Assembly (NCBI GenBank): GCA_028826165.1
Contig: JAPDFW010000069.1
Location: 248,001 to 312,000 of the forward strand
DNA: 64,000 nt
From: Anaeramoeba ignava BMAN
Lineage: Eukaryota; Protista; Anaeramoebae
Direction: 5' to 3'
Shown here: positions 17,301-58,819 of the stretch, piece by piece
Layout of the letters: each line of letters opens with the position of its first letter
Position numbering within the stretch: the stretch's first letter is position 1
Notes under the pieces: model-generated
Told to the model about the DNA's origin: nothing
Database searches by the model: none
What the model saw: only the letters and a program-made list of their open reading frames with translations
Translations under genes and position numbers: made by a program

Positions 17301-20119
17301 TACAAAAAACACCAACACGCCAGCCGCGCGCTGTCTATACAAACGAGGCTCCTCCGCTTTCTGCCACTTTCAGAAGGACTTTTTCGCAATTTCGTTCTCC
17401 AAAAAGAAATGCTTTAATATCCCCCAAAACTAAACATAATTTCTATTCCAGACTCTTGCCTAGTCGCAAGGTTGCTGAGCACGCAAAGGCGATTTTGTTC
17501 CGAATGAGCGAATTTTTTATGAACCAAAAAAAACAGCAAAATTTCAATCAAAATCAAAATCAAAATCAAAATCAAAATAAAAATTTCAATCAATTTGGAA
17601 ATCAAAATATAATTGAAGAAGAAGTTGAAGACGGAACACAAAAAGGGTTTGAGGAGAAAGAGTATGAAGGGATCCGAGGGAGACAAATGGGGGTAAACGA
17701 GGAGGAGTATTCACGGCAATACGGGATTTCTCGCGGAGAATTTTCGGGAAAAAGAAACGGAATTTTACTTCTTCTTTCGCGACTACTTTTTCCGATATGG
17801 AATTTCTCAATAGCAATTGAGATGAGTGTACTCCAAGTGGGGGAATCTGAGGAGGAAAAGGAGGAGCAGAAAGAACCGCAGGAAGACGCAATGGATATCA
17901 TACAGAAAACGGAGGAAAGCAATTACCAAAAGGCGATCCGGGTTCTTGATGGGATCCGAAAATACGCAATGGATTTAATACTTCCAAACCAAAAGGAATA
18001 CTACGAAACTCAGATATGGTGTCGGTTCACAAAGATCCAACTTGTGGAACTGCAAAAACCGCTTGTCAATCTTCAGCAATTCATTAAAAATTATTTATAC
18101 AGCGGAAAAGAGCCAGAAATTGCGATTGAATCCTCAACAAACAAACGGACAAGCCCCAGAAAAACGGAACAAAAACAACGCGCAGAACTCGAGATGCAAT
18201 CCGTTACGGATCTCTATTTCATCCTCAAAAGATCCGTTGATTGCCTGTCGTTGTTGGAAATTTTTGTGGAACATGGATTTGAATTTATCGCAATTTATCT
18301 TCCCAAACACATCCAGCAAATCCTGCTCAACATCACGTTCAAAGACTTCATCACAAGCGTTGAGGGTCTTGAGCTCGCAGAGCTTATGATCGAATCCCTG
18401 TTCAAACTATACGAGAACGAATCCAAGGCAATCGACCAAATAAGCTCACTTCTTGGCGAACGATGCGCAACTTTTTTCAGTCAATCTGACAACCTCAAAA
18501 TCAAGGCATTCAAATTATTATCACAAGCAAAGAAAACAAAGCTTAAAGGCGAGCGGAACGAGCTTATCCGCCAGTCCTTGAATATTTACAAATCAGTCGC
18601 AGATAAAATTGATGTCGAATCCATCTGCTGGCAATTTGCAGAGCTTTATCACTTTAACGACGCAATTGATATTGCGCTTTCTCGCGCGAAAATTATCGAT
18701 CCTGAGAATAAGAGCTCTTCTTTTTATGGAAAAAATACAAACGAGAATTCAAACGAAAATATAACGGAAAATTTCAATCAGAATTTAATCGATAACGACT
18801 TAGAAGAAATTTATTCGAAACGCATAGAATGCTATCAAGTCGTGATTGAAATTTTCCAGAACTTGATTTCTTTCCCAAATATCGCACTTGATCAAGAAGA
18901 AATAAACAACATGATCCCCCCAAATCAAACAACCCTCAAGCACCGCATTCTCCTCAACATCCCGCCTTCCAAAAAGGAGGTCTACCAAGAGGAGGCACTG
19001 CGCGCAATGATGAGATCGCAAGACGAGCTTTTCCACAACTATTTCTTCCAATTTCTGCTCCAAAATTCGCTGCCAAATATCCTTCTAAACTTGAAATCGC
19101 AGCATTTGGAGGGTTTTCTGAAGAGAAACTCCCGCGATCTTCTTTGGCAGTACTACATCCGAAACAACAAATTCTCAAACGCAGCAGATATTCTTATCGA
19201 ACTTGCAGAGGAATCAAGTGATTCTGAAGAAAATGATTTTGATTCAACCGAAAAACCGAAAAAGAAATTTTCTTTAGAACAAAGAATAGAATATTTATCA
19301 CTGGCGCTATCCAACATGAAAAACAAAGAGCAGAACTCAGGAGACCCCGAAAAGCTGCAAGAGCTGCAAGACAAACTGGATGTCGCACTGATTCAACAGG
19401 GCTTGATTGAGGAGGCCAAAAGCGTTCTTGAAGAGGAAGAGTTGATCCAAATTGTCCCGAATTTGGATTCCAGACTTTTTTCAATTTCGCAACTTTATAA
19501 CGACTTCGCTTTCCCTCTCTGTCTCTGGGACTCTTGCTTGGCCATCCTCCGCTGCTCGGAATACGAAGATCCGTCCGTTTACCAGATCATTTGGGAAAAA
19601 ATCATCCAGAAAATTTCCGAATCTTCGGATCAACTCCCCCAATCTCAACCCCAGCAAATAATCAACTTGGTTCATGACAAAGTTCTCAATCTCGGAAGGC
19701 AATTTTATCCCTCGAAATTCGCTTTTCCTGTCCCTTATATTTGCTTCTTGCTCGAAAGCTTGAATTTCGGTTTCCGTTTGAATTCTAATTTCGACAATTG
19801 GGTCGTCCGTTTAATGATCGAAATTGGTGTTCCTTATTCTATTCTTTTCAATTCTTATCTTCAGGAGCTTTATTCCAAAATTAACGACGACCGTTTCTTG
19901 ATTATTGTTTTCCAAAGCTTATTTTATATCGTTTATTCTTGGTTGGATTATATTCAAAGAAGTTTTAATATTGAAGAAAAAAATATTTTTGCAAATCAAA
20001 AAGTTTTGGATAAAGTTCAAGAATTTATTCAAAAATTACAAGAAATTTCAAAAAAACAAAAAGGAGAAGAAGTTCAAATTGCAAAATATTTAATTCAACA
20101 ATTTCAAAATTTAAAATAA
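14334..20119 (+). CDS. NUP155: Nucleoporin Nup155/Nup170
   Basis: GLFTEIGRAWIT..LIFWNY, GRIFFGGSDGKLYEIDY, NELASQH..PRKFVLLT, DELFH, DLLWQYY, LEQRIEYLSLA, ISQLYNDFAFP. Exons 14334-14556, 14743-14839, 15075 to about 15256, and 15861-20119. Confidence 0.93.
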
Positions 20120-23649: not shown

Positions 23650-25323
23650 ATGGATAATAATAATAATAACCAAATTGAAATTGAAAATGCAAATCAAAAT
23701 GAAAATGAAAATGAAATGAAAAATTTAGAAAAAAAAGTAACAAAAAATTTAATTAAAAATTATTCAAACCTTTTAAATGGAAATTCCTTTAAAGATTTTT
23801 CAATTTTTGTTGAGAATAAATCAAATCCTTTTGAAATTAAAGTTCATAAATCAATTTTATCTTCAAGATCTCCTTTTTTTAATGAATCATTAAGGCAAGA
23901 ATCTCTTTTTATTTCTTTAAATCAATTTAATAAAAAAGAAATGGAATCAATTTTGAGTTATATTTATTATGGAAATATTTCTTTTGAGAATCAAGAAAAT
24001 CTTTTTCAATTATTGGAAATTTCAATTTATTTTAAATTAAATTTATTGAAAGAAATTATTCAAAAAAAAATTTCAAATTCAATTAATTATTCAAATTTTT
24101 TCCAATTTTTATTCCAAAATCGAAATTTAAATTTAAATGAAATTGAAATAAAATGTTTTGAATTAATAAATCAAAATTTTTCCCAAATTCAGAATAATGA
24201 GAATTTATTCAATTTAACTAAAGAAGAAATTATCAAATTTATTCAATTTAAACAAGAAAAAAAAGAAATTTTTCAATTTGATTTTTTTCAATTTTTAAAT
24301 AATTGGATTAAAAAAAGAAATGAAAGATTAAAAGGAAAGAAAGAAAAAGAAAAAGAAAAAGAAAAGGGAATTGAAAAGAAAAGATTATTTCATTCTTTTT
24401 TTTCATTATTTGATAAAGATTCAATTTCAAAACAAGATTTTGATAAATTAAAACAATTTGATTTTTTTCCCAAATCTTTTTTAGTTGATATTCAAACCAA
24501 AGTTATTCAAGACAATCAAAAGGAAATTGAAAACAAAGAGAAAGAAATTGAAGATAAAAACAAAGAAATTGAAAAGAATCAAAAAGAAAATCAACAAATG
24601 AAAATTGAAATTGAAGAGAAATGGAAGAAAGAGGTTGAAGATAAAAACAAAGAAATTGAAGAGAAATGGAAGAAAGAAGTTGAGAAAATGAAACCAACGT
24701 TTGATAAATATGGAGATCAATATCAAAAAGATTTGGAACTTGAGAAAAAATTAGAAGAAATCAAAAAGAATTTTCCTCAATTTTCTGGAATTGTGAAAGA
24801 TATTGAATATGTTAAGAAATTACAAGAATGGATAAATGATAATGATTTTTTTTCTAAAATGAAAAAAGGATTTTCAGCAAAAAAAGATGGATTTAATTCT
24901 CGAAATTGGCATAAAGCAGTTGATGGGAAAGGAAAAACATTAGTTATTATCAAAACAAAAGATAATTTTATTTTTGGAGGATTTACTCAAGTTGGATTTA
25001 AATATGTTCAATCAGGTGGAGAATGGATTAATGATTCAAATGCATTTATTTTTTCATTAAGAAATGATAAAGGGGATAGAATACCTGCAAAGTTTACACA
25101 TAAACAAAAGAATGCAATTCATTCTGGTTTAAGTTATGGTCCATTATTTGGTAATGGATGGGATTTCGGTTTTGAATCTAATTTACAAGCTGGTTATTCA
25201 AATTTTGGTTATAGTTATAATCTACCTAATGGAATTGAATATGAATCAGATGAAGCTAAAAGTTATTTAGCTGGTTCTTATAATAAATGGATTATTGATG
25301 AACTTGAATCTTATTTCATTTAA
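23650..25323 (+). CDS. BTB/POZ - coiled coil - TLDc domain protein
   Basis: BTB: DFSIFV..IKVHKSILSSRSPFF..ILSYIYYG. TLDc: FSAKKDGFNSRNWHKAVDGKGKTLVIIKT..FIFGGFT..DSNAFIFSL..YGPLFG..YLAGS..IDELESY. Confidence 0.9.
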   Translation: MDNNNNNQIEIENANQNENENEMKNLEKKVTKNLIKNYSNLLNGNSFKDFSIFVENKSNPFEIKVHKSILSSRSPFFNESLRQESLFISLNQFNKKEMESILSYIYYGNISFENQENLFQLLEISIYFKLNLLKEIIQKKISNSINYSNFFQFLFQNRNLNLNEIEIKCFELINQNFSQIQNNENLFNLTKEEIIKFIQFKQEKKEIFQFDFFQFLNNWIKKRNERLKGKKEKEKEKEKGIEKKRLFHSFFSLFDKDSISKQDFDKLKQFDFFPKSFLVDIQTKVIQDNQKEIENKEKEIEDKNKEIEKNQKENQQMKIEIEEKWKKEVEDKNKEIEEKWKKEVEKMKPTFDKYGDQYQKDLELEKKLEEIKKNFPQFSGIVKDIEYVKKLQEWINDNDFFSKMKKGFSAKKDGFNSRNWHKAVDGKGKTLVIIKTKDNFIFGGFTQVGFKYVQSGGEWINDSNAFIFSLRNDKGDRIPAKFTHKQKNAIHSGLSYGPLFGNGWDFGFESNLQAGYSNFGYSYNLPNGIEYESDEAKSYLAGSYNKWIIDELESYFI

Positions 25324-25534: not shown

Positions 25535-28500
25535 TTAATTAATTTTGTTGTTTTTTCTTGGAATTAAAGGAATTTCTAATTGATTATCAAATATAATTTC
25601 TTCTTGTTGTTTTTCTTCTGAATTTGATTTCAATTTTTCTTCAATTAATTTTTCAACTTTTTCTTCTTTTTCTTTCTTTAATTCTTTTCTTCTTTTTTCA
25701 ATTTTAAGTGCTTTTTTTCTTAATTCTTTTAAATTTTTATTTGATGAAAGTGTAAGAAGAAATAAAAATATTTTTCTAATTTTTTCTTTTTGAATTGGTT
25801 CATGAGAAATTGGATGATATTCAATAAAAGTAAGTTGTGTTTTTTTTTCTTTGTTTAAAAGATCTTGATTAATTCCTTTTGGAAATATTTTTTGAAACAT
25901 AATTTTTTTCTGATTAACAAAATTAATTAAATAATTTGAAAAAATTCTTAGAATTGGATTATTTATTTCATGATCAATTAACATCATTGCTGAATAAGAT
26001 TCATCAAATGATTTTTTATCATCAAGTCTGAATATTGATAAAATTGATCCACCTCCCATTCCTAATAATTTTTTAATTGATGAAGTTGCTCCTGAAACTA
26101 TTGTCATAAAAAATTTAATAAAATCATAAATTGAAAATGCTGTTCGATTAGTTATTTTGTTTTTATAAGTGAAATATTTCCTCATAATTTTTTGAGCAAT
26201 AATTCCAAAAATAATTTGATAAACAATCACAATTATAATAAAAGATATCAAATATTTAAATACTCCATAAAGAAATTGTTTTGAAATGAACCAATAAATT
26301 GTTGGAATAATAAATAAAATGATGAAAACAAAAACCCAAACTAAAAAGAATGAAATTAATCCTAACCAAGCTTGTAAATTTGTATATGAAGTTACTTTAA
26401 CTGGATCTGCTGTTTCAAATTCTGGAAATGGTTTTTTACCTTGTCTTAAAAGCATTATTCTTTTCTTATATAATTTGAAAATTGATCTCCAAAGCAAAAG
26501 AAGAATAATAAATGCAATTAATCCTGAAATTCCTGAAGTAATTGATATTGCATTAAGAATTTGATTTACTTTTGTTCTTGAAAATGAATAAATAAATCTT
26601 GAAAATGAATTTGGAAATGGATTTGGATTACTTGAATAAGTTGAATCAATTTCTTGAATTAATTCAACTCCATAAATTGAAATTGTGTTTAAATAATCAT
26701 TCATATTTGGTTTATCTTCAAAACATTGATTTTGTTGAACATTTCCAATAACTTGTTGTCGATATAATTCAGTAATTAAACAAGAACTTCTTATTAATTT
26801 TGTTATAAGTAAAATCAATAAAATAACTAATACAATCCAAAGCCAAAATGAAGCAATCATTCTTTGTGGATAATAAAAATCAAAATAACTTTCATATTCT
26901 TGATGTGGATTTGTTTTATCTTCAAATTTTGATTTGATTTTTTTGATTAATTTTTTGAATAATCCAATAATCCAATTCCAAAAAATTGAACATTTATTTT
27001 TTGATTTGATTTGATTTTCTTTTTGTTTTTGTCGATCTTGTTTTTCAATTTCTTTTTTTACTTTTCTTTGAAATTGTAATGAGTTAATAATTTTCTTCTT
27101 TCTTAAATTTTGAGAATGTGATTTAACAAGGAATTGAATTTCTTTTTCTGTTAATTCTGAGATTTTCTTATTCTTGATATTTTCTTCTAATTTGTTATTT
27201 TGATTTTGATTTCGGTTTTGATTTTGATTTTGAATTTGAATTTCTTTTTGGGAATCAGATTCTAATTCAATTTCTCCATTTTCAATTTTTTTATTTTCAT
27301 TTTCATTTTCAATTTCAAAATCTTCATCAATAATTTCAAAATCACTTAATTCTGTTTCTGTTTCTGTTTCTGTTTCTGATTCTAAATGTTGTTCAATAAA
27401 TTTTTTTTCAATTTCTATAAATTTTAATGATTTGTTTGCACCTATTGGAAGTAATCTTTTGAAAAGAATAAAATAATTTGATATTCTTTCATGAATAAAA
27501 AATGTTTTTTCAATTAATTTTCTAAATTTTGGAATAAATTTTGATAAAATAATAATCAATAAAATCAAAAGAGAAAGACTAATAAGAATTGATTCAAAAA
27601 TTGATAATGCAACAAATTGTCCTGTTTCAATTTTATCTGTTTTAGGAATTAAATTTGAAATATAAACCATCAAAACAATAATTAATCCAATAACAATAAG
27701 AAATGTAATAATATTATGATTCTTTGTTGAATTAAGAACAAATGGGAAAATAAGACATAAACTAAAAACCCAAAAAAGAAAAGATTGTTTAAGTGAATCA
27801 ATGGCTTTTGTTACAACAATTTTATCAGGTGATGTAATTAAAATTGTTTGGAAATTTGATTGAATTCCTAAAACTGAAAATGCAATTTCTGCTTTTACTT
27901 TTCCTTCTTTATTCAAGCATTTTGAATCTCCTGAAACTGAATCAAATTTCAAATTGTTTAAAATCGTTTGATTATTTGGTTTTTTAACAATATTATCATT
28001 AGAAAAAGAAGCATCTGAACATTTTGTAATAATATTAATTGGAAAAGAAATATTTTCAAAATTTTCAAAATATTCAAAAAAAGTGATATTAATTGTTGCT
28101 GAAAATGTATTTCCAATTTCTAATTCATTTGGAAAATCTGAAGTTGGAATAAGATTTACTTTTTGAATTGGAATTTGAACATAAATTGGATCACTTGTAA
28201 TAGAAAAAGAATTTAAATAAGAAAATTCAATTTGATAATATCCAAAATTTCCTGATTCCATTCTTAAATTGAAAACTGCAATTCCATTTTCATCAGTTAT
28301 TTCAAGTGAAGTTGATGGATCTAATTTCCCATTTTCTGAATTTTGTGAAATTAATTTAGCAGTTATTGGTTTTCCAGAAATTGGAATTGAAAAAGAAAAA
28401 ATTTGAACAATAAATGAACCTAAATAATTCTTGTTATTAAATGTTATTGATTGATTAGGGAAAATAAATGGAATTCCAATTTGGGAATTAATTGAAGAAC

Positions 28501-31500
28501 TTAAAATTTGAATATGAGTTGGTTCATAAATAATTTTGATATTTTGTGAATAAGATTTATTATCACAAACAAATTGAATATTTATTTCCTCAATTTCTTC
28601 TTCTAAATCCAAAAATAAATTTGAAAATATTGCAATTCCATTTTCATTTGTAATTTCTGTTTTGATATCAATATATTGAGTATTATCAGAACTATTCTGC
28701 ATTTGTAAAATAATATATTTATTAGGGATAAGTTCATTTGTATTTTGATTTGAAACAAGAACTTTTGGAGAAATTGGGAAAGGTTGATTATAAAATATTT
28801 GAGAAGGAATATCAAAAAATTGCCAATCAAATTCTTCAATTGAAACATTTAAATCCTTTTCCTTTATTATTAAGGTTATAATAATCAAGAGTTGGATTTT
28901 CACAATCTGGAATCCAAAAATAAGAATTAATTGTTGTTGATTTCGAAATTTGAAGAAAAGAAATATTCCAAGTTACATATCCAGTTTCATTTGAAGGAGC
29001 TGTACTTAAAATATCTCCAGTTATTCCTGTATTAACATCTATTACTTCAACTTCACTTGGGATGAAAGGATCGAAAATTGAAAAATAAGCATAATATCCT
29101 TGAATTGGTTCTCCTGTTGAATTTGTAATTTGTAAAATTGGTTGAGAAGGAATTTTGTTATATCCTGATACAAATGGAATGGATGTATTCCAAGTTAAAT
29201 TGAAATTATAATCTTTATGAGGAAAACAAAGTTTAACAGGAACTTCTGAATTTGAAGGAACTCCATTTACAAAAATCATTAAATTGAAAGAATCATAAAT
29301 TGATTGTTGATTGATTATAAAATTATCCAAAATTAATTCTAATTCAAATAGAAAAATAAATATAAAAAATTAATTTGAATTTAAATTAAAAATAAAAATA
29401 AAAATAAAAACCTGTTCCATTTAATGTATAATTTGATTGGAATAAATTATTTGTTTCATTTTTTACTGTTTCGCTTGAATTTCTTCCAAAAAGTTTTCCA
29501 TAATAATTATTTGAATTTAAAGAAAGAATATTAACAGTTAAATTATTTTCTGAAATATTATTTCCAGTTATATTCAATTTGATTGATTCATTTCCAAAAG
29601 GTTGGCCAGGTATAAAATTTTGATTTGGATTTGGAAAATGAGAAATTTCAACTTTTTCAATATCATTTGATAAACTCATTCCAAAACATTCTTTCCAATC
29701 ATAATTTTCAAAATCAGGAATATAATCTTTTCCAATTACTAAACATAATTCAGTTCTCATTGAAATTCCATAAATTCTTGTTGAAAATATTCCTGTTCCA
29801 TTTATAATATTCCAATATCCTTCTTCAGGATAAATTAAATATCCCATTGGTAAATCTCCTGGATTAATAAATCCTGTTAAATTATAATTTTCATTAATAA
29901 CATCTCCTTTATAATTTTCAATAGAAATGTTCAAATTTATCAATTCTCCTGATTTTATATTTTCATTCCAATCTATTATTTCAATTTTGGAAATTGAAGT
30001 TAAATTAAGATTATTCCAATCATCTTTACTAATTCCAATCTCAATCTTAATCATTTCTGATTCAATTCCATCAACAATAACTGAACAATTTTGATAAGAA
30101 TAATAATAATAATCATTATTGTAATAATAATTAAAATCATTAGGAAGAATTAAAGCAAAATCTAAATATAAAGAAACAAGTCCATTTTGATTTGTGATAA
30201 ATTGATAAGGTTGAAATGTAAAATCTGAACAATTAAAAGAAATTAATTTATTTGGAATTCCTTTTCCAAATTCATTTTGAACTTGAATAACAGGCCAAGT
30301 ATCATTACTTATTATTTTAAAATCTTCTGTAATATTGATTGAATTCATTGTTTCAATCCAAATAATTTTATTAATTGAAGAATTAACTTGAATATTATCA
30401 GTTTCAATAAAAAATCCATCTGAAATAAATTTAATTTTAAATGAACAATTATTCTTTGTTAATCCTGAAATTGAAAATTTTAAATTTGAAAAAGTTGCTC
30501 TAAAAAATAATTCCAAAAAATAATTTGAATTAAAAATTTAATTTTGTTAATTTTGTGTTTTTAAATTTGTTTTACATTCCAAATTCATTTGTAAAAGAAA
30601 TAGGATTTAAAAGAACTTTTGAATTTTCAATAGGAGATTGATTTTCTGAAATTCCAAAATTACATTGTTTAGAAATTTTTGCAAAAACAGGTTTATTTTG
30701 AATTGTTTTATTTTCATTATATTTAACAATAATTTCCCAAGGTTTTGAAAATATTTCTCCTTCTTTCACAATAAAAGATCCATTTTCATTAATTTCAATT
30801 TTGGAAACTATTTTTTTAAATTAAAATTAAAAATAAAATTAAATTTAAATTTAAATTTAAAATTTAAAATTCAAACCATTTGTTTCAAAATTTAAAATAA
30901 AATAATTTTCAGTTAAATAAGAATTTTGTGAAGAATCATAAATTTTCATGTGATTTCCTTCATAAAAACTTGTTAAATTCATTTTTGTTGAAGTTGCTCC
31001 ACTTAATAAATTAAAAATTTTAATTGATGGAAATAAAACATTTGGTAAAAAAGAAGAAGAAGTTAAATTGACAAAAACTATTTAAAAATTAAAATTAAAA
31101 TTAGAATGATTTGATTTAATTTAATTTAATTTAATTTAATTTTTGTTTTTTTACAATAAGATTCATATTCAGGATAAATCCAAGTTCTATTTGCTGGAAT
31201 TGGAAATATTGAAATATTATTCAAATAAACTTGATTTTTTAAACTTGATTCACTTAAACTAAATCCAAAAATGAAAAGGATTTCTTTTCCAAAATTGAAT
31301 ATTTCACTATTAAAAGATCCATTTTTTGCAAAATAAAATTTATCAACTAAATCAAAGAAATAAAATAATATTTTTTAATAAATAAATAGAAATTGATTTG
31401 AATTAAATTAATTAATTACTTATGGGTTTCATTGAAAGTGGAAAAGAAATTTGAGATGTTGTTGAATTTGAATAAATTGATTTTAATGAAATATTTTGAG

Positions 31501-34500
31501 CTAAAATTAAATTAAAATTAAATTAAAATTAAATATTAATTGGATTTATTTTGGAAATAAATTTAAATAAATAATATTTACAAGGTCCATTCTTTTTAAA
31601 TTCATTTTCACTTTCAATTCCACATTCAGCAAAAAATGTTAAATTAATTGTTTGACTTATTCCTGAAATAATTGAAAGATTTGAAAATTTTACAAATCCA
31701 TCTTCATCAGAATATTGAATTGTATCTCCTGATATTGTAATTTGATTTTTCAAATATTCTTTCATTTCCATTAAACTTAAATCATTTCCTCCATAATTTT
31801 GACTTGAATCTAAAGAATATCCACTTGCAGTTACTTTACAATTTTTAATTCCATCACTTTTATATTTTTTGGAAACTCTTAACTAATAAGAAAATAAGAA
31901 AATAAAAGAATAAATTAAATTAAATTATTTATAAAAAAAAATAAAAGAAGAATTAAATAAATATCAATTAATTTACTTCAGTACTAAAAGTTTGGAAATA
32001 ATAAAGTTCAGTTTCATTTGGGAATTTAAAGAAATCCAAACTAAATTTTTTGTTTTTTAAATATTAAATAAATAAATAGTTAATAAATAAATAATTACTT
32101 TATCCCAATTTTATCTTCATTAATTTTTGTTGATTCAAGTAAATATCTAATTGCAACTCCAAATGTAAAAATGAAAAAAGTAGAAAGTAAAATAACTGTA
32201 AGAGATCTCCAAATAACATCATCTCCAACAAAATCAAGAAAATTTGGTTTTCCAATCCATTTCAAAATTGGTTTAAAGCAACTACAACATTTACTTGGTT
32301 TTTTGATTTTTTGATATTTTTTTGATTCTTTTCTTTCAATAATTTTCTTTTTCTTTTTCTTTTTCTTTTTAATTTTCAAAATTAAGTAAATCACAATTAA
32401 AGAAATTATTATCAAAATTGGAATAATTGTTGAAAGAATAATAATAATTGATTTGGATGATTTTTGATTTGAAGGATTTGAGATTGGAATTGGAGTTGGA
32501 GTTGGAAGAGAAAATTGATGAAATGAAATTTGTGGATTATCACTATCAGAATAAGCTGTTGAATAAAGATATCTTGTTGATGAATCAAATGTAAAAATAT
32601 TGAAAGAATAATTCCAATTTGTTTCTGTAAGAATTTGAAATGAATTTAAATCAATTTGAATTATTTTGGTTGAATATTGATCATCGTTAATAGGAACCAG
32701 GCACGCCACTATTAAGTGAGAGTTTGAAACAGGAATAACGTGGATAACAATATTTTCTTGATTTTGTTGTATTATTTGAACTTCTTTAAATAAGAAATAT
32801 CCATATCTGGATTTTGAATCAATAAATGAACTGAGGAAAGAAAGAGAAAAAAATTGATCTGATTCAATCTTAACATAATCATCTAAAACCCTCATTTCAG
32901 ATAATTCAATTCCACAAATTTGGATTCCATCATTTTCAGATTCCCAGAGAAAATAAATGTATTGATGAATTGAATTAAATAACATTGTTTGAATTGGATA
33001 ATAATTTGTTAAATCCAAATAAGATATTTGATTAAAAGAATCAAAGATCAATTTTAATTAAATCAAGCCAAAAACCTATTGGATTATTAATTTCCATAAA
33101 TGAATAAAGTGATTTTTTTGGAAGAATCAACAAATAAATTTTGGAATTGTTTAAAATCAGAAATTGGAAAATAATCAACAATTTCTAAATTTGGAGAATT
33201 TATTTTAAGAATTTTTCCATTTTCATCAGTTAAATTTGAAAATCCAACATAAAGGAAATGATTTTGGTTATCAAAACAAGTTGATTGAATTGATCCATTT
33301 GAATCAAGAATTTTCATTTCTGAAATTGAAAAATTGGATAATTCAACTTTCATAATTTTTGAAATTTTTGTTTGAGAACTTATAAAAAAATAAGCAAATC
33401 CATTTGAAGAATCAATTTCTCCAAAATTAATTTTATCAGAAGAATTATCATTTGTTATGTAATCTATTAATTGAAAAGAAGATAAATCAATTTTTGCAAC
33501 TAATACAAAAAGATAATCAAATCCAACATAAGCAATTTGATTTAATTCATCAATTAAAATGATGGATGGATCTTGAAAATTTCCCAATCCTGAATTCTTT
33601 TCTTGGAATTCTAATAAATCAAACTTGATAAATGATGAATTAGTGAATCCAATATAAGCATAAGTTGTTGATGAATCAAAAGATATTACAGGAAAAGCAT
33701 CTGAAAAGGAATATGATTGAATACTTTCAAAAGAAGTAAGATTAATTTTCTGAATACAGATAAATTGAGAGAAAAAAAAATCAAAAACACAACCAACCAC
33801 AAAATAACCTAAATGATTCACTGTATCAATTCCTACTGAAATAATATCATTATAATCTTTATCTTCCACAGTTATATTATCCATTTTTGTAAAATCAGTC
33901 AAATTTACTTTCACAATTATCAAAGATGGATAATAAGAAAAGCCAACATACATTAAATTTGTTGAATTATCAATAATTCCATTCATATTTGACCATTCAG
34001 AGAAAATCTCAATTAAAGTAAGTGTTCCAATTTCTGATAAATTTCCTAAATCAATTTTCTGTATTTGAGGATTTGAATTGGAATTATTTGTTGAGAAAAT
34101 ATAAAGATATTGATTGAAGAGATCAATTTGAGAACCATAAATAGAATCTACATCAATACTTGTATTCAATTCGATTGAAAAATTTGTTAAATCAATTTTG
34201 AAAATTTGATAATTGTCAGAAGAGCAATAATCATAACATTTCAAAATAAAATAAGCTTTGGAATTATTTAAATCAATGTGTGAAGAAATAAAACCCCAAT
34301 CCAAATAAGATTCAGGTAACTCAATAGAATCTATAATTGAAAAGCTTGATAAATTGAATTTAATTATTTTTGGATTTTCATTCCAACTATATTCGTATGG
34401 ATTTGTTGCCAAATATGCAATTTGATTTTTTGGATCAATTACTCCTGTTAAAATTTGTTGATCAAGATCACTTAAATAAGATGAATTAAACAAATGAAGG

Positions 34501-34986
34501 GAATTTAAATCAATTTGAAAAATTGAATTCTCAAGAAAACTTCCGAATGGAGAACAGTCAAAATTGAAATAGTAAAGAAATCCATTGCTTTCATCAATTA
34601 AAGATAAAGTTGGATTTAAAATGGATCTTGGAAAATGAAAAGAGTTTTCCAAAGTTTGATTTTGAACAATTAAAATGAAGAAAGAAAAACAAAATAAAAG
34701 AATAAAAAACTTGATTTTCCTAATTTTTCCCAAACAAAAACAAAAAACAAAAACAAAAACAAAAACAACAAATAAAATCAAAAACAAAAAAAATAAAATC
34801 AAAAAAAAAAAACAAAAACAACAAAAACAAAAACAAAAGCAAAAATAAAAAGCAAAAGCAAAAAATAAAATCAAAATCAAAATCAAAAATAAAGCAAAAA
34901 TAAAAATCAAAATCAAAAAATAAAAGAAAAAAGGAAAATAAGTTAATTGTTTTGTTTTGTGAAATTTGTTCAAAAATTATTTACAT
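25535..34986 (-). CDS. Giant multi-pass receptor: signal peptide, beta-propeller-like repeats, TM-loop-TM, Ig-like ectodomain, STRA6/RBP-receptor-like membrane domain
   Basis: Start codon split AT|G by intron 34720-34984, then 8 further phase-consistent GT-AG introns between 32098 and 29339. STRA6-like motifs FYYPQRM, KRIMLLRQGK, TNRTAFSIYDFIKFF, FRLD..DESYSAMMLIDHEINNPILRIF, LLTLSSNKNLKELRK. Needs three 1-nt homopolymer corrections (about 33115, 33045 and 28858). Confidence 0.6.
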
Positions 34987-35759: not shown

Positions 35760-36338
35760 ATGCAATCAATTAAATGTGTAGTTGTTGGAGATGGAGCAGT
35801 TGGTAAAACATGTTTATTAATATCATATACAACAAATGCATTTCCAGGAGAATATATACCAACAGTATTTGATAATTATTCAGCCAATGTAATGGTAGAT
35901 GGAAAACCAATCAATTTAGGATTATGGGATACAGCAGGACAAGAAGATTACGATAGATTAAGACCATTATCATATCCACAAACGGATGTATTTTTGATCT
36001 GCTTTTCATTGATTTCACCTTCTTCTTTTGAAAACGTTAGAGCTAAATGGGTTCCTGAAATTCATCATCATTGTTCTAATGTTCCTATGATTCTTGTTGG
36101 TACTAAGCTTGATTTGAGAGATGACCAAGATACTATCATGAAACTTGAAGAAAAAGGTTTATCTCCTATTAGTTATCAAGCTGGTATGGATATGGCTAAA
36201 GAAATTAAAGCGGTTAAATATTTGGAATGTTCTGCTTTGACTCAGAAAAATTTGAAAACTGTTTTTGATGAATCTATTCGTGCTGTTCTTTCTCCTGTTA
36301 AACCTGATAAACCAAAAAAGAAATGCTCTATTTTATAA
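35760..36338 (+). CDS. RAC1: Rac-family Rho GTPase (intronless)
   Basis: [65 protein letters not shown]; CaaX CSIL. Confidence 0.96.
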
Positions 36339-36429
36339 TTTTCTTTTTTTTTAAAAACAAAAAAAACAAAAATTTTAATAAAATATCTTGTTATTGAAAA
36401 ATCAAAACAACAATTTTTTCTTTTTTTAA

Positions 36430-43206: not shown

Positions 43207-46200
43207 ATGTTAGTATCATTTATTGTGGATACTTCATATTCAATGCTCCAAACAACATCATATGGAGTTAGTTTATTAGATTGTGCAAAATCAGCAATTG
43301 AACATATAATTAAAACTCGGTCACTTGATCCAATATCGAAAGATGATAAATATTTTTTAGTTACACTTGAATCAAATGGAATTAAAGTTATTAATTCATT
43401 TCAAACTGATTTTAAAATATTAATTTAAATTCAAAATATAAATTTATTTCAAAATATAAATTTATTTCAAAATATTAATTTATTTCAAAATATTAATTTA
43501 TTTCAAAATATAAATTTATTTCAAAATATTAATTTATTCCAAAATATTAATTTATTTCAAAATATAAATTTATTTCAAAATATAAATTTATTTCAAAATA
43601 TAAATTTATTTCAAAATATTAATTTATTTCAAAATATTAATTTATTCCAAAATATTAATTTATTTCAAAATATAAATTTATTTCAAAATATTAATTTATT
43701 CCAAAATATAAATTTATTTCAAAATATTAATTTATTTCAAAATATTAATTTATTCCAAAATATAAATTTAAAGGTTGGTTGGCAAGATCCTCAAGTTGAA
43801 TTTTTAGAGAAATTAAAATATATTGAAGCAAAAGATTTAACTGATCTTGGAATTGGTTTAACTCATTCTTTTGAATTATTAAATAAATTTAGATTATTAA
43901 ATGGTGTAGAATGTTATGGTGAAGGAAGATGTTTATGGAGAATTCAACCTTCTTTAATTTTTATATTTACAGATGGTGATAATAATTCAACACTTTCAGG
44001 AGTTTCTGAAGTATTTATTAAAATTAAAATCAAAATTAAAATTCATTTTGAATTTAAAATCAAATTTAAAATTTAAAATTTAAAATTAAAATTAAAATTA
44101 AAATCAAAATTAAAATCAAAATTAAAATCAAAATTAAAATCGGATAAAAAATTCATTTTGAATTTAAAATTCATTTTAAATTTAAAATCAAAATCAAAAT
44201 CAAAATCAAAATCAAATTTAAAATTAAATTTAAAATTAAATTTAAAATTAAAATTAAAATTCATTTTAAATTTAAAATCAAAATCTAAATCAAAATCAAA
44301 ATCAAAATTAAAATTAAAATTATAATTAGAAATTAAAATTAAAATTATAATTAAAATTAAATTAAAATTAAAATTAAAATTAAAATTAAAATTCATTTTG
44401 AATTTAAAATTAAAATTAAAATTCATTTTGAATTTAAAATTAAAATCGGATAAAAAATTAAAATCGGATAAAAATTAAAATCGGATAAAAAATTCATTTT
44501 GAAAATTAGAATAGATTCTAATACACACAAGCACAGAATTCGGATCTAATTTCACATTAGAACCATTCCGTTGGGATCAAAGAGTATACTCAATTGTAAT
44601 GAAATTCCCAGCAATTGATTCAACAGAAACCAACTTGAATTTTTCATCGATCAACACGATAGAAAAAACCTTCACAATATCATCGGAAGAGCCGATTTCT
44701 TTGATGTGTGAAGTAACTGCAGGAAACTGTTTTGTTGTGCGGAACATGCGGCAACTGCTTTCATGTTCTGAGGAATTAGTGCGAAAAGTTTTTACTCGAT
44801 ACGCTTCAGTTTGTTTTGAAAGTTTTGGGTTGAATTCCGAACGGATCAAGCATCAAAACGCGCTGATAGCAGTCAATTCCATTTCGGGCAGTTGGCCTAT
44901 CCCTGAGAACTTCCTAATCACAAGATCGATGATGAAGCTCCCTTCAAGACATGCTCAGCCGCTGATAAAAGTTGATCTAAACGGGGTTGATTTGGGGATA
45001 CTTGAGAAATTTCCTGTTGATTGCTACGATATTGAGAAGTGCTTGCTTAGTGAAGAGCTGATAAAACTCAACCAGCCCAACTTGTGCTATCGAGTTTATG
45101 CGGAGGGAAGCATGCCTATTAATAACGGACTTGGGGGATCTTTTGGGTTTCTGAAACAGTCCTCGACAAACAGAAAAATCAAACTTTATGTTTTGCCTTA
45201 TAATTATGAACTACTTTTTTCGCTTTTGAACCGATTGATTTTGGTTCAATCCAAAAATCAGCAGTATTTCAATACGTTTAGAAAGGATTTCGAGATGTAT
45301 TTGCAGTCAATTCCGCGATATTATTTTCCATACTTGAAAAATGCACTTGTTTCTTTTGGATTTCCAAATATTATCAATGATCAAACTACTATTTTATCCG
45401 ATTTGGGTCTTTCCATTTATGTCACACAAAATTTGCAAGAACTTCATCACCAAGCAAAATTAGAGAATGAAAAAATGCAATCCATTTTACGAGAAAAGCT
45501 GCAAATGCGCCAGGAGAAAAACCAAGGAATGCATTTAGAAAATCAAAAAAACGTCAAAAAATCAAATGGATTCAATGGATTGGGGATGTTTGGGACAACA
45601 ACACAACCCAAACGAGGAGCGAACCAGCCAGCGCGGCTGAAAGAATCTGCTGTTGAACCGCTTGTTATTCGGCCTTTTGAGATTGCGCGGGATTCGCTAG
45701 CTGCCAAACTGGAGGAAATGAGGACAAAATGGTTCAATCTTGGAACACAACCGCCAATTGAACCCAAGTTTATGATTCCTGTTTCCGAAATGGGAAACTA
45801 CAAGCATGCTTTGTTGAGCCAGAAGTTCTTGAGATCCGTCGATGAAGACGAGGAAGAAAGGCGAAAGCGTATTAGAACGCCTTTCTTTGGGAATCCCTTT
45901 AAAAATCAATCAACTGGAAATCAAAATTTACATGTTGATGAAGCTGATGGAAATATTGATTTTGAAAGTCCTCAAAAAAGGAATTCTCCATCAAGAAAAA
46001 ATTCGCGACATTTTGGGAAAGGAAGAAAAATGAAAGAAATTGAAATTAAAAATCAAAATCAAAATCAAAATCAAAATTCAAATGAAATTAAAAATCAAGA
46101 TGAAATTAAAAATGAAATTAAAAATCAAGATGAAATTAAAAATAAAATTGAAATCAAAATTCAAAACCAAAATCAAAATATAAATCAAAATCAAAATCAA

Positions 46201-46551
46201 AATCAAATTCAAAATCAAAATCAAAATATAAATCAAAATCAAAATCAAATTCAAAATCAAAATCAAATTCAAAATAGTTCAAAAATTTTTTCCGATTTAG
46301 ATTCAAAAGATCCTTCAAAACATAATTCTCAAATTCTTATTTCTATTCTTGCTTTAATTCGTAAATCTAATTTTCCAAAAACAAATAAAATTGATTCTGT
46401 TTTTGAAAAAGTTAATATGTTAATTGGAAAAGATTATGAAAAAAAACCTTTTCTTATTCAAATTGCAAAAACAATTCAAAGATATAAAGAAATGATTTTA
46501 TTACAAAAATTTGAAGAAAAATTTGGGAATTTGATTCATGGTTTTTATTAA
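43207..46551 (+). CDS. INTS6: Integrator complex subunit 6 (VWA)
   Basis: FIVDTSYSM..LLDCAKSAIE..DKYFLVT, YGEGR, FTDG, GSNFTLEPFRWDQR, WPIPE..LPSRHAQP, FPVDCYDIE, FGFLK..LYVLPYNY, IPVSEMGNY, FGNPF. Introns 43387-43773 and 44011-44514. Confidence 0.92.
43430..43770. repeat. Intronic 18-bp tandem repeat ttcaaaatat(a/t)aatttat
   Basis: About 19 visible units in INTS6 intron 1. Confidence 0.88.
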
Positions 46552-51566: not shown

Positions 51567-53897
51567 ATGGATGATGAAAAATTTCATGGAATAATAAAAC
51601 CAATAGACACATTAGCAGGACATACATTTGCAGTAAATTCAATAATCAAGCATGGAAACCACGCATTCAGTTCATCAGACGATAGAACAATAAAAGAATG
51701 GGATCTTTTAACAGGAAACGAAATAAACACACTTACTGGACATGAAGGCAAAGTAATATCGTTGCGTGTGCACAACGGGGATCTTTATTCCACGAGCCAA
51801 GACCACACTGTGCGCTCTTGGAACCCCAAAACGGGAGAACAGAAACTTGTGTTTTCGGGACACGAAGGCCGGATAACATGTTTCGGGCTTGACGGCGAAA
51901 GATTGTTTTCCGGCTCCGCAGATAACACGATCCGTTTGTGGAACACGAAAACTGGCAATTGCGGGCACGTGTTTTCCGGCCATACCGACCAAATTTCTGG
52001 ACTTCATGTTTTGCAAAATACGCTGTATTCAGCAAGTGTAGATAAGACATTGCAGTCTTGGGATACAGAGACAGGTCAATGTACAAATGTTTTTGTTGGA
52101 CACCCGTCATGGGTGTTTTGTTTGGAATACAATAATGGCATTTTGTATTCCGGCTCAAAAGACGGATCGATTCGTGCTTGGGATCCGCAAACAGGAATGT
52201 GCACGCGCGTCTTTGAATTCCATCACTATCCTGTTATAAAGATTGAGGTCCACGATGGTGTCTTGTATTCCGGCTCTTGGGATGGCACTATTGGCTGTTT
52301 TAACATATCTTCCGGCCAACCGATTCGCATTTTTGAAGGACATTCCGGCAAAATCACAACGTTTAAAATTGAGGAAAATTTGCTTTTTTCTTGTTCAAGA
52401 GACAGAACAATGCGCGCTTGGAATTTGCGGAATGGAAGATGCGATTTCTTGTTCGAAGGATCCAAAAGTCCGATAAATTGCGTTCTTGTTGACGATGACT
52501 ATATCGCTACTGGCTGTCAAGACGCTAAGATAATCAAGTGGCCAAGTATAAAGGGCAAAAAGTCCAAAGGTGTGACAGTGACAAGCTCAAAAGGCTCAAA
52601 GAAAAAGGACAGGAAACTCTATATAAAAGGGGATCCTGACTTGGCGTTGATTAAAACAATGTACATTGATTACGACGAGAAAAAAGAGCATCTTGAATCC
52701 ATCTCAAACGCCTTTAAAGAGTACTCCACATTTGGCAACCAGGAAGTCAGTGACGGCAAGTTGTTTTCTGAAGAACTCTCGCGGTTTGGCAGTGATTTGA
52801 CAGCATGCGTCTCAAAAGGCGCCAACATTGACACCACCTATCAAAGTCCCAGCAAAACAACCAAACAGACACAGCCTACAGACTCGCAGAGCAACCCTAC
52901 GCAAGAGCAAACCCCGCAAATCTCTCTCGGGCCTCTCGGCGAGCTCGGCGTTCTCGAGTCAACAATAAACTATCTTGAACTTGTTTCCCATTTCGATGAA
53001 GTTGACGACGACATTGGCATCTTTCTCCGCGAATTTGCCGGACTTCAAAACAGACTCGAAAAAGAAAAAGAACGTCTTTATGTCTCTGTCAACAAGCAGT
53101 TTTATAAACCTCTTCGCAATTTTTCCCAACTTCTCAAAAGAGCAAAGCGTTCAATCCAAAATTGCGATACAGCAAGAAAAGAATATGTCAGTAAAAAGAA
53201 AAAACGGACTTCTCAAGCAAATCAATTTAATGTTTTGGAAACTCGATTTGAACTGGCAAAACTTGAAGCAAAAAATAAAATGGAAGAAATTGAAATGCAT
53301 CAGGACATCAACTTTCTCCGCAGCGTATGCACGCTTATGAAACTACAATTTGAATTCCATCGCAATGCTTATGATCTTCTCAACGAGATAGAACCATTGA
53401 TTGGGATCCTTCAGGGAAAAATTGCTCTCTTTGAGGCTAAAAGATCCGCTTATATGCTTCAGAATATTCAGTTGCCGGGAGAAAAACGCCGGAAAAAACC
53501 AGAACCTAAAAAATTTTTGACACTTCGTGCTTATGACGCTCAAAATGAAAATGAACTTAGTTTCGAACAGGATGTCATTGTCAATCTTGTTGAGAAAAAA
53601 AGGAAAATGAGTCTTGGTGAAATTGATGGCAAAACAGGGTTATTTCCAAATTCGCTTGTGATGCCTTTTTATGATGGCACTGAAACTGATACTGAAGAGG
53701 ATATTGTTGACACAGACAACTATGAATCAGAAAAGACTGAAACTGATGGCGAATCAAGAACAACTGACTTTGGCGATGAGCAGCATAGTCAACTTCATGT
53801 TCCCAGAGAAGATAGTCAACTTATTGAACAAGATTTTGGAGATGATGATAATGATGATAATGATGATGATAATGAAAATGATAATGAAAATAATTAA
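51567..53897 (+). CDS. WD40 repeats - BAR-like helical domain - SH3 - acidic tail protein
   Basis: About 8 GH...WD repeats; helical region with FYKPLRNF..CDTARKEY..LMKLQFEFHRNAYDLL; SH3 LRAYDAQNENELSF..GEIDGKTGLFPNSLV. Confidence 0.85.
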   Translation: MDDEKFHGIIKPIDTLAGHTFAVNSIIKHGNHAFSSSDDRTIKEWDLLTGNEINTLTGHEGKVISLRVHNGDLYSTSQDHTVRSWNPKTGEQKLVFSGHEGRITCFGLDGERLFSGSADNTIRLWNTKTGNCGHVFSGHTDQISGLHVLQNTLYSASVDKTLQSWDTETGQCTNVFVGHPSWVFCLEYNNGILYSGSKDGSIRAWDPQTGMCTRVFEFHHYPVIKIEVHDGVLYSGSWDGTIGCFNISSGQPIRIFEGHSGKITTFKIEENLLFSCSRDRTMRAWNLRNGRCDFLFEGSKSPINCVLVDDDYIATGCQDAKIIKWPSIKGKKSKGVTVTSSKGSKKKDRKLYIKGDPDLALIKTMYIDYDEKKEHLESISNAFKEYSTFGNQEVSDGKLFSEELSRFGSDLTACVSKGANIDTTYQSPSKTTKQTQPTDSQSNPTQEQTPQISLGPLGELGVLESTINYLELVSHFDEVDDDIGIFLREFAGLQNRLEKEKERLYVSVNKQFYKPLRNFSQLLKRAKRSIQNCDTARKEYVSKKKKRTSQANQFNVLETRFELAKLEAKNKMEEIEMHQDINFLRSVCTLMKLQFEFHRNAYDLLNEIEPLIGILQGKIALFEAKRSAYMLQNIQLPGEKRRKKPEPKKFLTLRAYDAQNENELSFEQDVIVNLVEKKRKMSLGEIDGKTGLFPNSLVMPFYDGTETDTEEDIVDTDNYESEKTETDGESRTTDFGDEQHSQLHVPREDSQLIEQDFGDDDNDDNDDDNENDNENN

Positions 53898-54069
53898 TGA
53901 AATAATTAATGAAACAATTAATGAAATAATTAATGAAATAATTAATAACTGATTTTTTTTCTTTCTTTCTTTCTTTCTTTCTTGGCATTTATTTTAAGTG
54001 TCAATTCCAAATGTTATTGCATTACTTTCTTTCATTTTTTTCACAGAAATAATAAAACGAATTTTTTAA

Positions 54070-54110: not shown

Positions 54111-54124
54111 TCTTTTTTTTAAAA

Positions 54125-57061
54125 ATGTTAGTTATTCCTGAAATCGAATGGACAAAAATAGAACCAACAACACAAACTCCAACTCAAAGATGGGGACATA
54201 GACTAGTTTCTGAAGGAGAAACAGTATACGTTTACGGTGGATATTCACCACCAGACAACAGCTGGTCTAACGATGTGTGGAAATTTGATATGAGAAGCAA
54301 AAAATGGGAAAAATTATCAACAACTGGAACAAAACCTGATGGAATTTTTGGATCAGAAACAGTTTTTTATAATAACAACATTTACGTTTTTGGGGGATCA
54401 TCCGGATTCAGTTACACAAACTCAATAAGCAAACTAGATCTTAAGACAAATAGATGGGAACGGATCAAAGCAAAAGGAAAATTACCGCGTGCAAGATCAC
54501 ATTTGTGTTCGACAGTTTACGAAAACAAGATGATTATTTTTGGCGGTTGGGATAATTGGAATAATTTAAGATTTAACGAAGTTCATTCGTTTGATTTCAA
54601 GACATTGGAATGGGAAGTTTTAGAGCCGAAAGATAAATACAGTATCCCAGGATTAGCCGGACCAACAGCACATCTATTTGGGTCAAAATTGGTTGTATTT
54701 GGCGGCAATTATCTTGAAAAAAACACCCCCAAACGGACAAATGATGTTTTTCTTTTTGATCTTCGAAAGCAAGTGTGGGAAGGTCCTTTGAATGCGCAAG
54801 GAACAAAGCCAAAACCCCGCGCGTCGCATTCAAGTATTCTTTATAAAGACCGTTATCTTTTTATTTATGGCGGTTGGGACGGTAACGAAGCCTTTAAAGA
54901 TTACTGCTATTTTGACTTGATCACAAAGACTTGGTTTCCTATTCATTCTAAGGGGTCAGTCCCCCCTGGTCTTATTGGTCATGGTTCAACTTATCTTCCC
55001 GAGTCAAATAAAATGGTTCTTTTTGCTGGTGATGTTGGAAACAGAAATGCTATTAACGACATGTTCGTTCTTCAGTTTATGAGAATGCAACAAACTATTT
55101 TGGATAATTTTTTTAATACTCGTTTGTTTTGTGATGCGTCTGTTAAATGCGCAAATTTTGTTGAAGTTCCTTATCATCTTTGTATTCTTCAAGCTCGTTG
55201 TCCTAATGATCTTATTTTCCGTTCAGTTGCTCCTTCTTATAAATCTTCTGTTGTTCTTTCTGTTTTGAGATTCTTGTATACTGATATTATTCAGGTTGTT
55301 CCTGATGATATTGAAGCTGTTTTACAATGTGCTGAAAGGCTTGGTTTGTATTCTATGATTGAGAATATGAAAGAAAATCCGAATTTAGAGAATCGTAAGT
55401 TTTTTTTTAAAATGAATTTTTATCCGATTTTAATTTATAATTTTAATTTTAATTTTAAATATAATTTTATAAATGAATTTTATAAATGAATTTTAATTTT
55501 AATTTATAAATGAATTTTTATCCAATTTTAATTTATAAATGAATTTTAAATTATAAATGAATTTTAATTTTGATTTTAATTTATAAATTTAATTTTAATT
55601 TTAATTATAATTTTATAAATGAATTTTATAAATGGATTTTTAATTTTAATTTTAATTTATAAATGAATTTTTATCCGATTTTAATTTATAATTTTAATTT
55701 TAATTTTAAATATAATTTTATAAATTTAATTTTATAAATTTAATTTTATAAATGAATTTTAATTTTAATTTTCAAATGAATTTTTATCCGATTTTAATTT
55801 ATAATTTTAATTTTAATTTTATAAATGAATTTTTATCCGATTTTAATTTATAAATTTAATTTTAATTTTAAATATAATTTTATAAATGAATTTTAATTTT
55901 AATTTTATAAATTTAATTTTATAAATGAATTTTATAAATTTAATTTTATAAATGAATTTTATAAATTTAATTTTATAAATGAATTTTATAAATTTAATTT
56001 TATAAATGAATTTTAATTTTAAATATAATTTTATAAATGAATTTTAATTTTAAATATAATTTTATAAATGAATTTTAAATTATAAATGAATTTTAAATTA
56101 TAAATTTAATTTTAATTTTAATTATAATTTATAAATGAATTTTTATCCGATTTTAATTTATAATTTTAATTTTAATTTTAAATATAATTTTATAAATGAA
56201 TTTTAATTTTAATTTTAATTTATAAATGAATTTTTATCCGATTTTAATTTTTAATTTTAATTTTAAATTATAAATGAATTTTAAATTATAAATGAATTTT
56301 TATCCGATTTTAATTTATAAATTTAATTTTAATTTTAAATATAATTTTAAATTATAAATGAATTTTAAATTATAAATGAATTTTAAATTATAAATGAATT
56401 TTAATTTATAAATGAATTTTTATCCGATTTTAATTTATAAATGAATTTTAAATTATAAATGAATTTTAAATTATAAATGAATTTTAATTTTAATTTATAA
56501 ATGAATTTTTATCCTATTTTAATTTTAATTATAATTTTAATTTATAAATGAATTATTTTTATTTTTCTCATAAAAAAAATAGCAAATTTACTTGCACAAA
56601 AAAAAGGACAATTCAATAAAGTTGCAGAAGATCTAGCACAACTTTATTATGCAGAATCAGGAAAAGATTTCACAATCGAAATAGGATCAACATTATTACC
56701 AATTCATAAACCAATTCTTGCATTAAGATCTGGATTATTTCGAGATATGTTTCTAAGTGTTGTTGATACATCAAACAAAGCACCTGATCCAAGCGGAAGA
56801 AGTGAAGAAACATTAAAAGTTTTAATCAAATTCCTTTATTTTAATTCAATTGATCCAAATGTTCTTAATTTTGACTTGGCTTATGAATTACTTGATGCAG
56901 TTCATTATTATCAACTCCAAGATGATACTTTATTGCAAATTTGTGTCAATTATTTCAAACAAAATTTGAATGAGAAAAATTTTGAATTTGTTCTTGAAAA
57001 AGCTGATACTTTTGATATTGTTGAATTGATTCATTTTATTGAAGAAAATTTTTTAAAATAA
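54125..57061 (+). CDS. Kelch repeats plus two BTB domains (LZTR1-like architecture)
   Basis: Six Kelch repeats (GG..W); BTB1 [21 protein letters not shown]; intron 55395-56582; BTB2 [27 protein letters not shown]. Confidence 0.88.
55395..56582. repeat. Intron of mixed low-complexity repeats with recurring ttttatccgattttaatt
   Basis: About 8-9 copies of the atccgat motif among ataaatgaatttt and aatttt units. Confidence 0.85.
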
Positions 57062-58709: not shown

Positions 58710-58819
58710 TTTATTTTCCACTTTTTTTTTTTAATCTATCAAAAAAAAATTTCCAAAAAATTCATTTTTCATTTTTTTCATTTTTTTCATTTTTATTTTT
58801 AATTTTTTTAAAAAAGAAA

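Follow-up and report, generated by a model that had tools for sequence, protein, structure and literature searches.

Mirror-image A-rich and T-rich silent-site zones at exon edges in a 64-kb window of the Anaeramoeba ignava genome

Genes and exons of the window

The genome of Anaeramoeba ignava is among the most AT-rich eukaryotic genomes reported, with 80.65% AT overall and 91.86% AT in introns (PMC11550330). The window analysed here is a 64-kb stretch of this genome, and all counts given below refer to 43 exons defined in it by hand. Exon ends were placed by looking for GT-AG borders, with a possible error of a few bases; transcript support covers the Kelch intron, and reads were compared over positions 51400-55400. 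Codons within 90 bp of frameshifts were excluded, as were an open-ended HEAT-like exon (leaving 17 of 18 long exons in the all-exon permutation) and the repeat part of an RRM-like exon. Five small exons (ARF exon 2, Rab exon 2, G-alpha exon 5 and two exons of membrane genes) were left unscored. Domain names are taken from Pfam searches unless indicated otherwise. The exons that carry the polarity described below are as follows (A/T, counts of A and T; GC4, fourfold GC).

35760..36017, plus strand: Rac coding sequence (Pfam Ras), A-rich 5' zone; fourfold sites 30 A/4 T
36018..36338, plus strand: Rac coding sequence, T-rich 3' zone; fourfold sites 1 A/39 T
54125..55394, plus strand: Kelch-BTB exon 1 (Pfam); A zone 27/13, core GC4 0.28, T zone 2/36 up to the splice donor
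55395..56582, plus strand: Kelch intron, 94% AT, supported by a spliced contig; polarity resets across it
56583..57061, plus strand: Kelch-BTB exon 2; A/T 24/9, then 3/12
15861..20119, plus strand: last exon of Nup155 (Pfam); A zone 27/3 after the acceptor, unskewed core 129/119 with GC4 0.43, T zone 4/15
44515..46551, plus strand: last exon of INTS6 (Pfam); 23/11, core GC4 0.39, 8/14
51567..53897, plus strand: WD40 single-exon gene (Pfam), unnamed in the preliminary description; 21/8, core GC4 0.47, 7/14
61636..63108, plus strand: MT-A70-like ORF, named from the preliminary description and an NPPW motif; 6/1, then 5/18
60633..61340, minus strand: RRP15 (Pfam), previously unnamed; 9/0, then 7/17 on the sense strand
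8750..11228, minus strand: exon 2 of an RRM-like gene, previously unnamed; 18/1 after the acceptor, 5/12 before the donor

The MT-A70-like ORF has no Pfam match at the cut-off used for it (E 0.001). The RRM-like label comes from reading the sequence, and the part of exon 2 that was searched has no Pfam match.

Frame breaks are present near 3200, 10250, 28900, 33100, 57535 and 60540, mostly at homopolymers or microsatellites in host genes that are otherwise intact; they are probably assembly errors, some perhaps small introns. Exon 3 of Nup155 (window positions 15075-15865) has no GT donor near 15259, where frame and protein continuity suggest one; this gap is either a non-canonical intron (AT...AC, 15241 to 15865, which also keeps the frame) or an assembly error. 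In the Nup155 core at 17000-18100, a short QN microsatellite (17546-17584) separates pyrimidine-rich fourfold sites on its upstream side from purine-rich ones downstream (A/T/G/C 11/14/5/12 versus 14/7/12/2).

The preliminary description of this DNA placed a switch from A-ending to T-ending codons in Rac at position 36018, and a recount agrees: before this position proline is CCA (5/5) and threonine ACA (5/6), and after it the codons are CCT (6/7), TCT (8/8) and ACT (4/4). All TCN serines before the switch are TCA, as had been stated, with a count of 6/6 instead of the 5/5 given earlier. Divided at the gene midpoint, Rac has A/T counts of 30/9 and 1/34 (p=1.1e-11). The best change point lies at 36017-36020, and the switch is a step at 259 bp (AIC 37.0, versus 58.5 for two smooth overlapping zones). 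The rank statistic for Rac is 0.89 (p=1.4e-8); metagenomic Rac homologues average 0.49 (n=68), and a skew in the Rac direction is significant in 0/68 of them. This set comprises 68 of 80 loci, 12 having been dropped because they were split, short or had too few sites. An A. ignava record of 182 amino acids on another contig is identical to Rac over 92% of its length, with a different N-terminus, and is probably a recent duplicate.

The two-exon Kelch model has the same length as the A. ignava protein record (582 amino acids), and a contig from run X3 connects 55394 to the start of exon 2. The return to A-ending codons that had been reported at this exon is clear, with A/T counts of 1/26 in the last 200 bp of exon 1 and 21/7 in the first 200 bp of exon 2 (p=3e-8). 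As a general rule, resetting after introns fares less well, being significant at three of the seven introns tested. Four runs agree with positions 51400-55400 apart from five sites, which indicates that there is no assembly artefact in this part. These five variant sites (four silent, one Arg/Lys) all lie at least 328 bp from the 5' edge and are too few for a spectrum.

All six exons named in the preliminary description (Rac, Kelch exons 1 and 2, Nup155, INTS6 and MT-A70) are polarised in 300-bp edge zones, with p values from 1e-11 to 0.03. Three further exons (WD40 and, on the minus strand, RRP15 and RRM-like exon 2) are polarised as well, and the polarity is seen in both gene orientations.

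Geometry and distribution of the edge zones

The mirror A/T pattern is real in this window. Its significance rests on a permutation across exons, in which sites of the 17 closed exons of at least 450 bp were shuffled within codon families in 300 runs; an early split of the genes into "core" and "other" is post hoc. Nine of the 17 exons are significantly A-first and T-last and 0/17 are reversed, whereas the permutations give a mean of 0.9 and a maximum of 5 significant exons. The pooled odds ratio is 4.5 (permutation maximum 2.2), and the 11 long exons unnamed in the preliminary description give 173/79 versus 100/104 (p=2e-5). The 25 short exons are without polarity (138/115 versus 137/133, p=0.43). 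The generality first claimed thus extends to nine long exons but to neither the other eight, which are flat, nor the short ones.

It is highly improbable that chance, amino-acid composition, an assembly artefact or a chimeric Rac accounts for the pattern. The first examples were hand-picked, eight of 17 long exons are flat, homopolymer frameshifts occur in the window and the protein-identical copy of Rac lies on another contig. However, the within-codon-family permutation is significant, as are the 11 unnamed exons; four runs match 51400-55400 except at the five sites; none of the 68 Rac homologues is alike; and RRP15 has the same step as Rac, at 260-314 bp from its ATG.

The flip had been described as lying near the middle of exons, and this did not stand. 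Decay over a fixed distance from both edges (AIC 1072) fits far better than a step at the centre (1161) or a slope over relative position (1126). These fits, like the equilibrium fits below, use nine exons picked for their polarity (a post hoc set). The decay is Gaussian with a length of 298 bp; exponential decay (1087), decay from the ends of the coding sequence (1153) and a slope along the coding sequence (1167) are worse. The pattern consists of two edge zones of about 300 bp, one rich in A where the exon starts and one rich in T where it stops, which have almost no GC and enclose an unskewed, GC-richer core. An apparent central flip is confined to exons of 500-700 bp, in which the two zones abut. 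Within the first 90 bp fourfold GC is 0, and it then climbs to 0.43 over a fitted length of 277 bp. From exon to exon the zone end ranges between 113 and 564 bp.

The mirror symmetry that had been claimed holds, with zone effects of +1.52 and -1.68 logit after TpA avoidance and no significant context interaction. An apparent context rule, with A kept only before A and T only where a T precedes, comes down to additive avoidance of TpA of the ordinary kind, which flat genes have too. The polarity belongs to the exon and not to the mRNA (AIC 1072 versus 1153-1167 for mRNA models, a check run within the window). As the mRNA-position models are worse and Kelch resets, tRNA selection and ordinary transcription bias fail as explanations, in line with the earlier argument. 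The two kinds of 5' edge are alike (A/T 93/31 at ATG, 92/24 at acceptors), as are the two kinds of 3' edge (35/124 at stops, 7/48 at donors). Coding repeat arrays of at least 100 bp act as half-strength edges (1.11 versus 2.39, a gain of 7.3 log-likelihood units at the best of three length cut-offs); a plain count around internal repeat arrays falls short of significance (p=0.13).

Selection on DNA or pre-mRNA could place A near exon starts and T/U near exon ends, as signals for exon definition, starts or 3' ends or as a cue for a directional remodeler. The sharp Rac step would suit such signals, and T to the left and A to the right of a spacer gives the strongest yeast nucleosome-free regions (PMC4212969). 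This explanation is nevertheless fairly unlikely. The same bias occurs at four functionally different edges, and isolated sites, which cannot join an A run, are biased as strongly as others (98 A/23 T in 5' zones, 124/160 in cores, 10/73 in 3' zones; interaction p=0.10). RNA folding (global, long-range or local) shows no gain for Rac and Kelch exon 2 (z -0.74 and -0.84, 40 shuffles each). The partial reset at repeat arrays is not at splice sites, and short exons, which need exon definition most, have no polarity. Selection for remodeler-oriented poly(dA) tracts is likewise weakened by the isolated sites, although the T-left, A-right arrangement fits them.

Strand-biased mutation or repair in the one or two nucleosomes that lie at either end of an exon, linked to transcription or to the nucleosomes themselves (through pausing, R-loops, antisense transcription or nucleosome positioning), is an unlikely explanation as well. 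The zones are about two nucleosomes long, and steps near 260-290 bp are seen in Rac, RRP15, Kelch exon 2 and RRM. The amino-to-keto direction is that of fungal genes, for whose 5' and 3' GC skews a cause of this kind has been proposed (PMC3315797), and the gene classes described below would be explained if flat genes were weakly expressed. Set against this, equal and opposite strand effects would need antisense transcription as strong as sense, and the fungal AT skew is reported to be flat along genes (PMC3315797).

The eight flat long exons belong to the membrane protein, TLDc-BTB, BTB coiled-coil, two ubiquitin-like and QN-rich genes, and they have no GC core. The open-ended HEAT-like exon is flat at its 5' end. 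The main counter-examples are as follows.

23650..25323, plus strand: TLDc-BTB gene of a large family; A/T 11/10 versus 12/17, GC4 0.07
25535..34640, minus strand: membrane-protein gene or genes; three long exons with no polarity and no GC core, GC4 0.02-0.10
57128..60609, plus strand: two tandem ubiquitin-like genes (Pfam); no polarity

The membrane protein at 25535-29339 (minus strand) has a C-terminal domain similar to STRA6/RBP receptors (PF14752, E=2e-10). Fourfold GC is 39-47% in the conserved long-exon cores of Nup155, INTS6 and WD40 and 2-10% in the equally long membrane-protein exons, which makes two classes of gene. The TLDc-BTB gene is one of a family of which at least 119 copies are dispersed in A. 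ignava (43-98% identity), and all 119 named relatives among the matches listed for it are from A. ignava. Most of these copies are labelled "pep-cterm sorting domain-containing protein" at source. One polarised gene has no close paralogue among 1556 candidates, as opposed to this one flat gene in a large family, with a single example on each side; Rac, which is polarised, has a protein-identical copy on another contig of different length. The absence of polarity from a gene of a large young family and its presence in one without a close paralogue could also reflect weaker selection on the family gene.

The spacers do not share the skew of the exons. Their AT skew has the expected direction in only 19/47, with no continuation of the exon skew into them, and no T-to-A flip was found within them. 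Spacer length is not significantly correlated with polarity (rho 0.21 and -0.32), and the long spacers beside the TLDc-BTB and BTB genes have no zone. The proposal that skew radiates from every AT-rich block is therefore contradicted, both by the unskewed spacers and by the eight flat long exons, including TLDc-BTB beside a 2.1-kb spacer.

The same observations bear on replication origins in AT-rich spacers, of which the first few hundred bases copied would be error-prone and A-biased. Yeast leading strands are rich in A and C, which is the sign seen here (PMC3459929), and human origins show local error-prone synthesis and skews (PMC9645720). Even so, origins are quite unlikely to be the cause. 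The yeast skew is a 9% jump over about 20 kb (PMC3459929), compared with a near-complete one over 0.3 kb here. An origin would be required every 1-2 kb, there is no jump in spacers, and long spacers without a zone lie by the TLDc-BTB and BTB genes. From fork geometry, lesions on the lagging template would give the opposite sign. The dense replication initiation suggested earlier thus agrees with yeast in sign but differs in amplitude and decay.

Several other features of the non-coding DNA were recorded. Introns longer than 350 bp are full of short AT tandem repeats; their sense strand is A-rich in seven of nine, neutral in one and T-rich in Kelch. Many acceptors are preceded by runs of A and not by pyrimidine tracts. 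Several intergenic regions, those on either side of Rac among them, contain tandem copies of a dispersed AT-rich repeat of about 145 bp (22083-23246, 35200-35560, 36400-37600 and 42860-43130; all but the array at 22083 were judged by eye).

Strand-specific loss of C and G and its possible cause

C and G have different fates at the two edges. Twofold C stays at 29% from the 5' edge into the core (19/46, 22/54 and 23/56) and falls to 1/91 at the 3' edge. Twofold G nearly disappears next to the 5' edge (1/89) and persists next to the 3' edge (14/94) at a level below the core; G is partly kept in the 3' zone (13%, versus 26% in cores). The loss of C relative to T in the 5' zone is confined to sites at which C>A is silent (interaction 0.31, p=0.003); the mirror test in the 3' zone is null (0.87, p=0.74). 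An equilibrium model requires G>A and C>A on the sense strand in the 5' zone, mirrored in the 3' zone (AIC 6763-6780). This means that the strand with its 3' end toward the spacer gains T from C and G (that is, by C>T and G>T on the opposite strand in the 5' zone). Models with G>A (deamination) alone (AIC 6942-6943) or symmetric AT pressure (AIC 6974-6984) were rejected, as was T>A alone as an equilibrium fit. A reversible base-preference model, with a preference for A and a penalty on GC, fits as well as the mutation model (AIC 6758.7 versus 6755-6765). Composition therefore cannot prove mutation, and this equal fit also speaks for the selective explanation given above.

The explanation tentatively favoured here, at somewhat less than an even chance, is that the silent A/T zones come from one-sided DNA damage, in which the strand ending 3' at a spacer is repeatedly single-stranded and gains T from C and G. 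The geometry, the trough in GC that accompanies the zones and the difference between strands in the loss of C and G are observed directly. That mutation is the cause, that spacers break or stall forks, and that the changes come from deamination of C and insertion of A opposite damaged G are inferred parts. AT-rich repeats stall forks and break.

The proposed model is as follows. Two events could repeatedly expose the strand that ends 3' at an AT-rich spacer, namely 5' resection starting at breaks within the spacer or the stalling of forks on arrival; from fork geometry, this strand would be the lagging template of a fork reaching the spacer. Recopying of the exposed strand would place T where C and G had been damaged. 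The pressure would weaken past about 300 bp, where fourfold GC would rise to about 0.43. The two zones would abut and mimic a central flip in exons of 500-700 bp; short exons would have overlapping zones that cancel each other. Genes with neither polarity nor a GC core would have to be young, mobile or exposed along their whole length.

Evidence from other systems is mixed with respect to this model. At resected breaks the forward strand is exposed as single-stranded DNA to the left of the break (PMC7615360), which corresponds to the observed sign, and the mirror zones match this geometry of an exposed strand ending 3' at the site. In resected single-stranded DNA of yeast, spontaneous mutation is up to 100-fold higher, with G>T through insertion of A as its commonest class; T is hardly ever substituted, and under oxidative stress C>T predominates (PMC3799438). 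The half-strength edges at coding repeat arrays and the lack of a folding gain also favour the damage model. Human break-flank spectra are reported as C>N and A>N, not G>T, and count against the damage model (PMC7615360). The unskewed spacers, the eight flat exons among the 17 long ones, a Rac step that is too sharp and a polarity that is not tied to spacer length are further points against it, as are the variable zone ends, the null mirror test in the 3' zone and the plain count around internal arrays.

Silent GC is about 0 where exons begin and end and reaches 0.43 in their cores, and its loss is strand-specific; the edge-zone pattern may help to explain how the A. ignava genome became so AT-rich. 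A broader idea, possible but doubtful, is that mutagenesis starting from AT-rich spacers acts on one strand over about 300 bp, changes C and G there to T and wears silent GC at exon edges down to near zero, so that GC-rich sequence survives only in long-exon cores. On this view AT richness would propagate itself, and the codon usage of this anaerobic eukaryote would show, at base-pair resolution, where breaks or stalled forks chronically occur. Models of codon usage, dS and gene prediction for the Anaeramoeba lineage must allow for position within the exon.

Comparison with known mirror skews

A literature search, with subscription journals outside its reach, found no report of this pattern in Anaeramoeba, nor of an A/T version in any eukaryote. 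The main text of the A. ignava genome paper contains neither "skew" nor "codon" (PMC11550330), and 11 of its 15 supplementary files contain none of "skew", "codon usage" and "GC3".

The fungal gene-end skew is a related pattern: fungal genes start C-rich and end G-rich (McLean and Tirosh 2011, PMC3315797). As described there, it shares with the A. ignava zones mirror 5' and 3' ramps, a flat middle, an effect at fourfold sites and occurrence in many but not all genes, and in both cases C survives at 5' ends and G at 3' ends. In fungi, however, a flat, positive AT skew accompanies a GC skew that reaches into promoters and UTRs, whereas in A. ignava the AT skew is dominant and near fixation. The A. 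ignava zones also differ in that they reset at introns, coincide with a GC trough and are not seen in spacers. Fourfold C/G counts are 10/26 versus 10/9 (p=0.08), short of the fungal type of G/C skew, and the flank profiles and spacers (19/47) do not show an extension into UTRs or promoters. The A. ignava zones also bear on these fungal 5' and 3' skews, in a far stronger form.

In the account of the subtelomeric purine skew on the gene-sized chromosomes of the ciliate Nyctotherus (PMC2633312), each strand is purine-rich at its 5' end beside a DNA end, whichever strand codes, which is similar to the arrangement here. That skew spans 70-130 nt at true chromosome ends, with its 3' part outside coding DNA; the A. 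ignava zones are about 300 bp long, internal and in codons. Poly-T/poly-A promoters (de Boer and Hughes 2014, PMC4212969; Dictyostelium, PMC3371697) likewise have T to the left and A to the right of an AT-rich gap. They consist of homopolymer tracts that lie in non-coding DNA within about 100 bp, unlike the isolated silent coding sites with unbiased flanks of A. ignava; the equal bias of these sites departs from the homopolymer tracts of a remodeler architecture.

The yeast origin skew (Marsolier-Kergoat 2012, PMC3459929) would have the same sign if spacers were origins. The decay of 298 bp and the lack of a jump in spacers differ from its slow decay over many kb, just as the near-complete amplitude differs from its 9%; on such grounds, replication was rejected for a 74%, 3-kb centromeric jump in that study (PMC3459929).

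To our knowledge, there is no case in which mutation at breaks or in single-stranded DNA has fixed codon usage. Resected meiotic breaks (Hinch et al. 2023, PMC7615360) are similar in that the forward strand is exposed to the left of the break, and hypermutation of single-stranded DNA in yeast (Degtyareva et al. 2013, PMC3799438) is similar in its G>T and C>T spectrum with T as the sink. The human breaks have tracts of 1-2 kb, a small excess in rate and the C>N and A>N spectrum (PMC7615360). Taken together, the A. ignava zones work like known end-anchored mirror skews, yet they depart from each of these in its defining features, being made of A/T and not G/C, near fixation, anchored to exons and accompanied by a GC trough.
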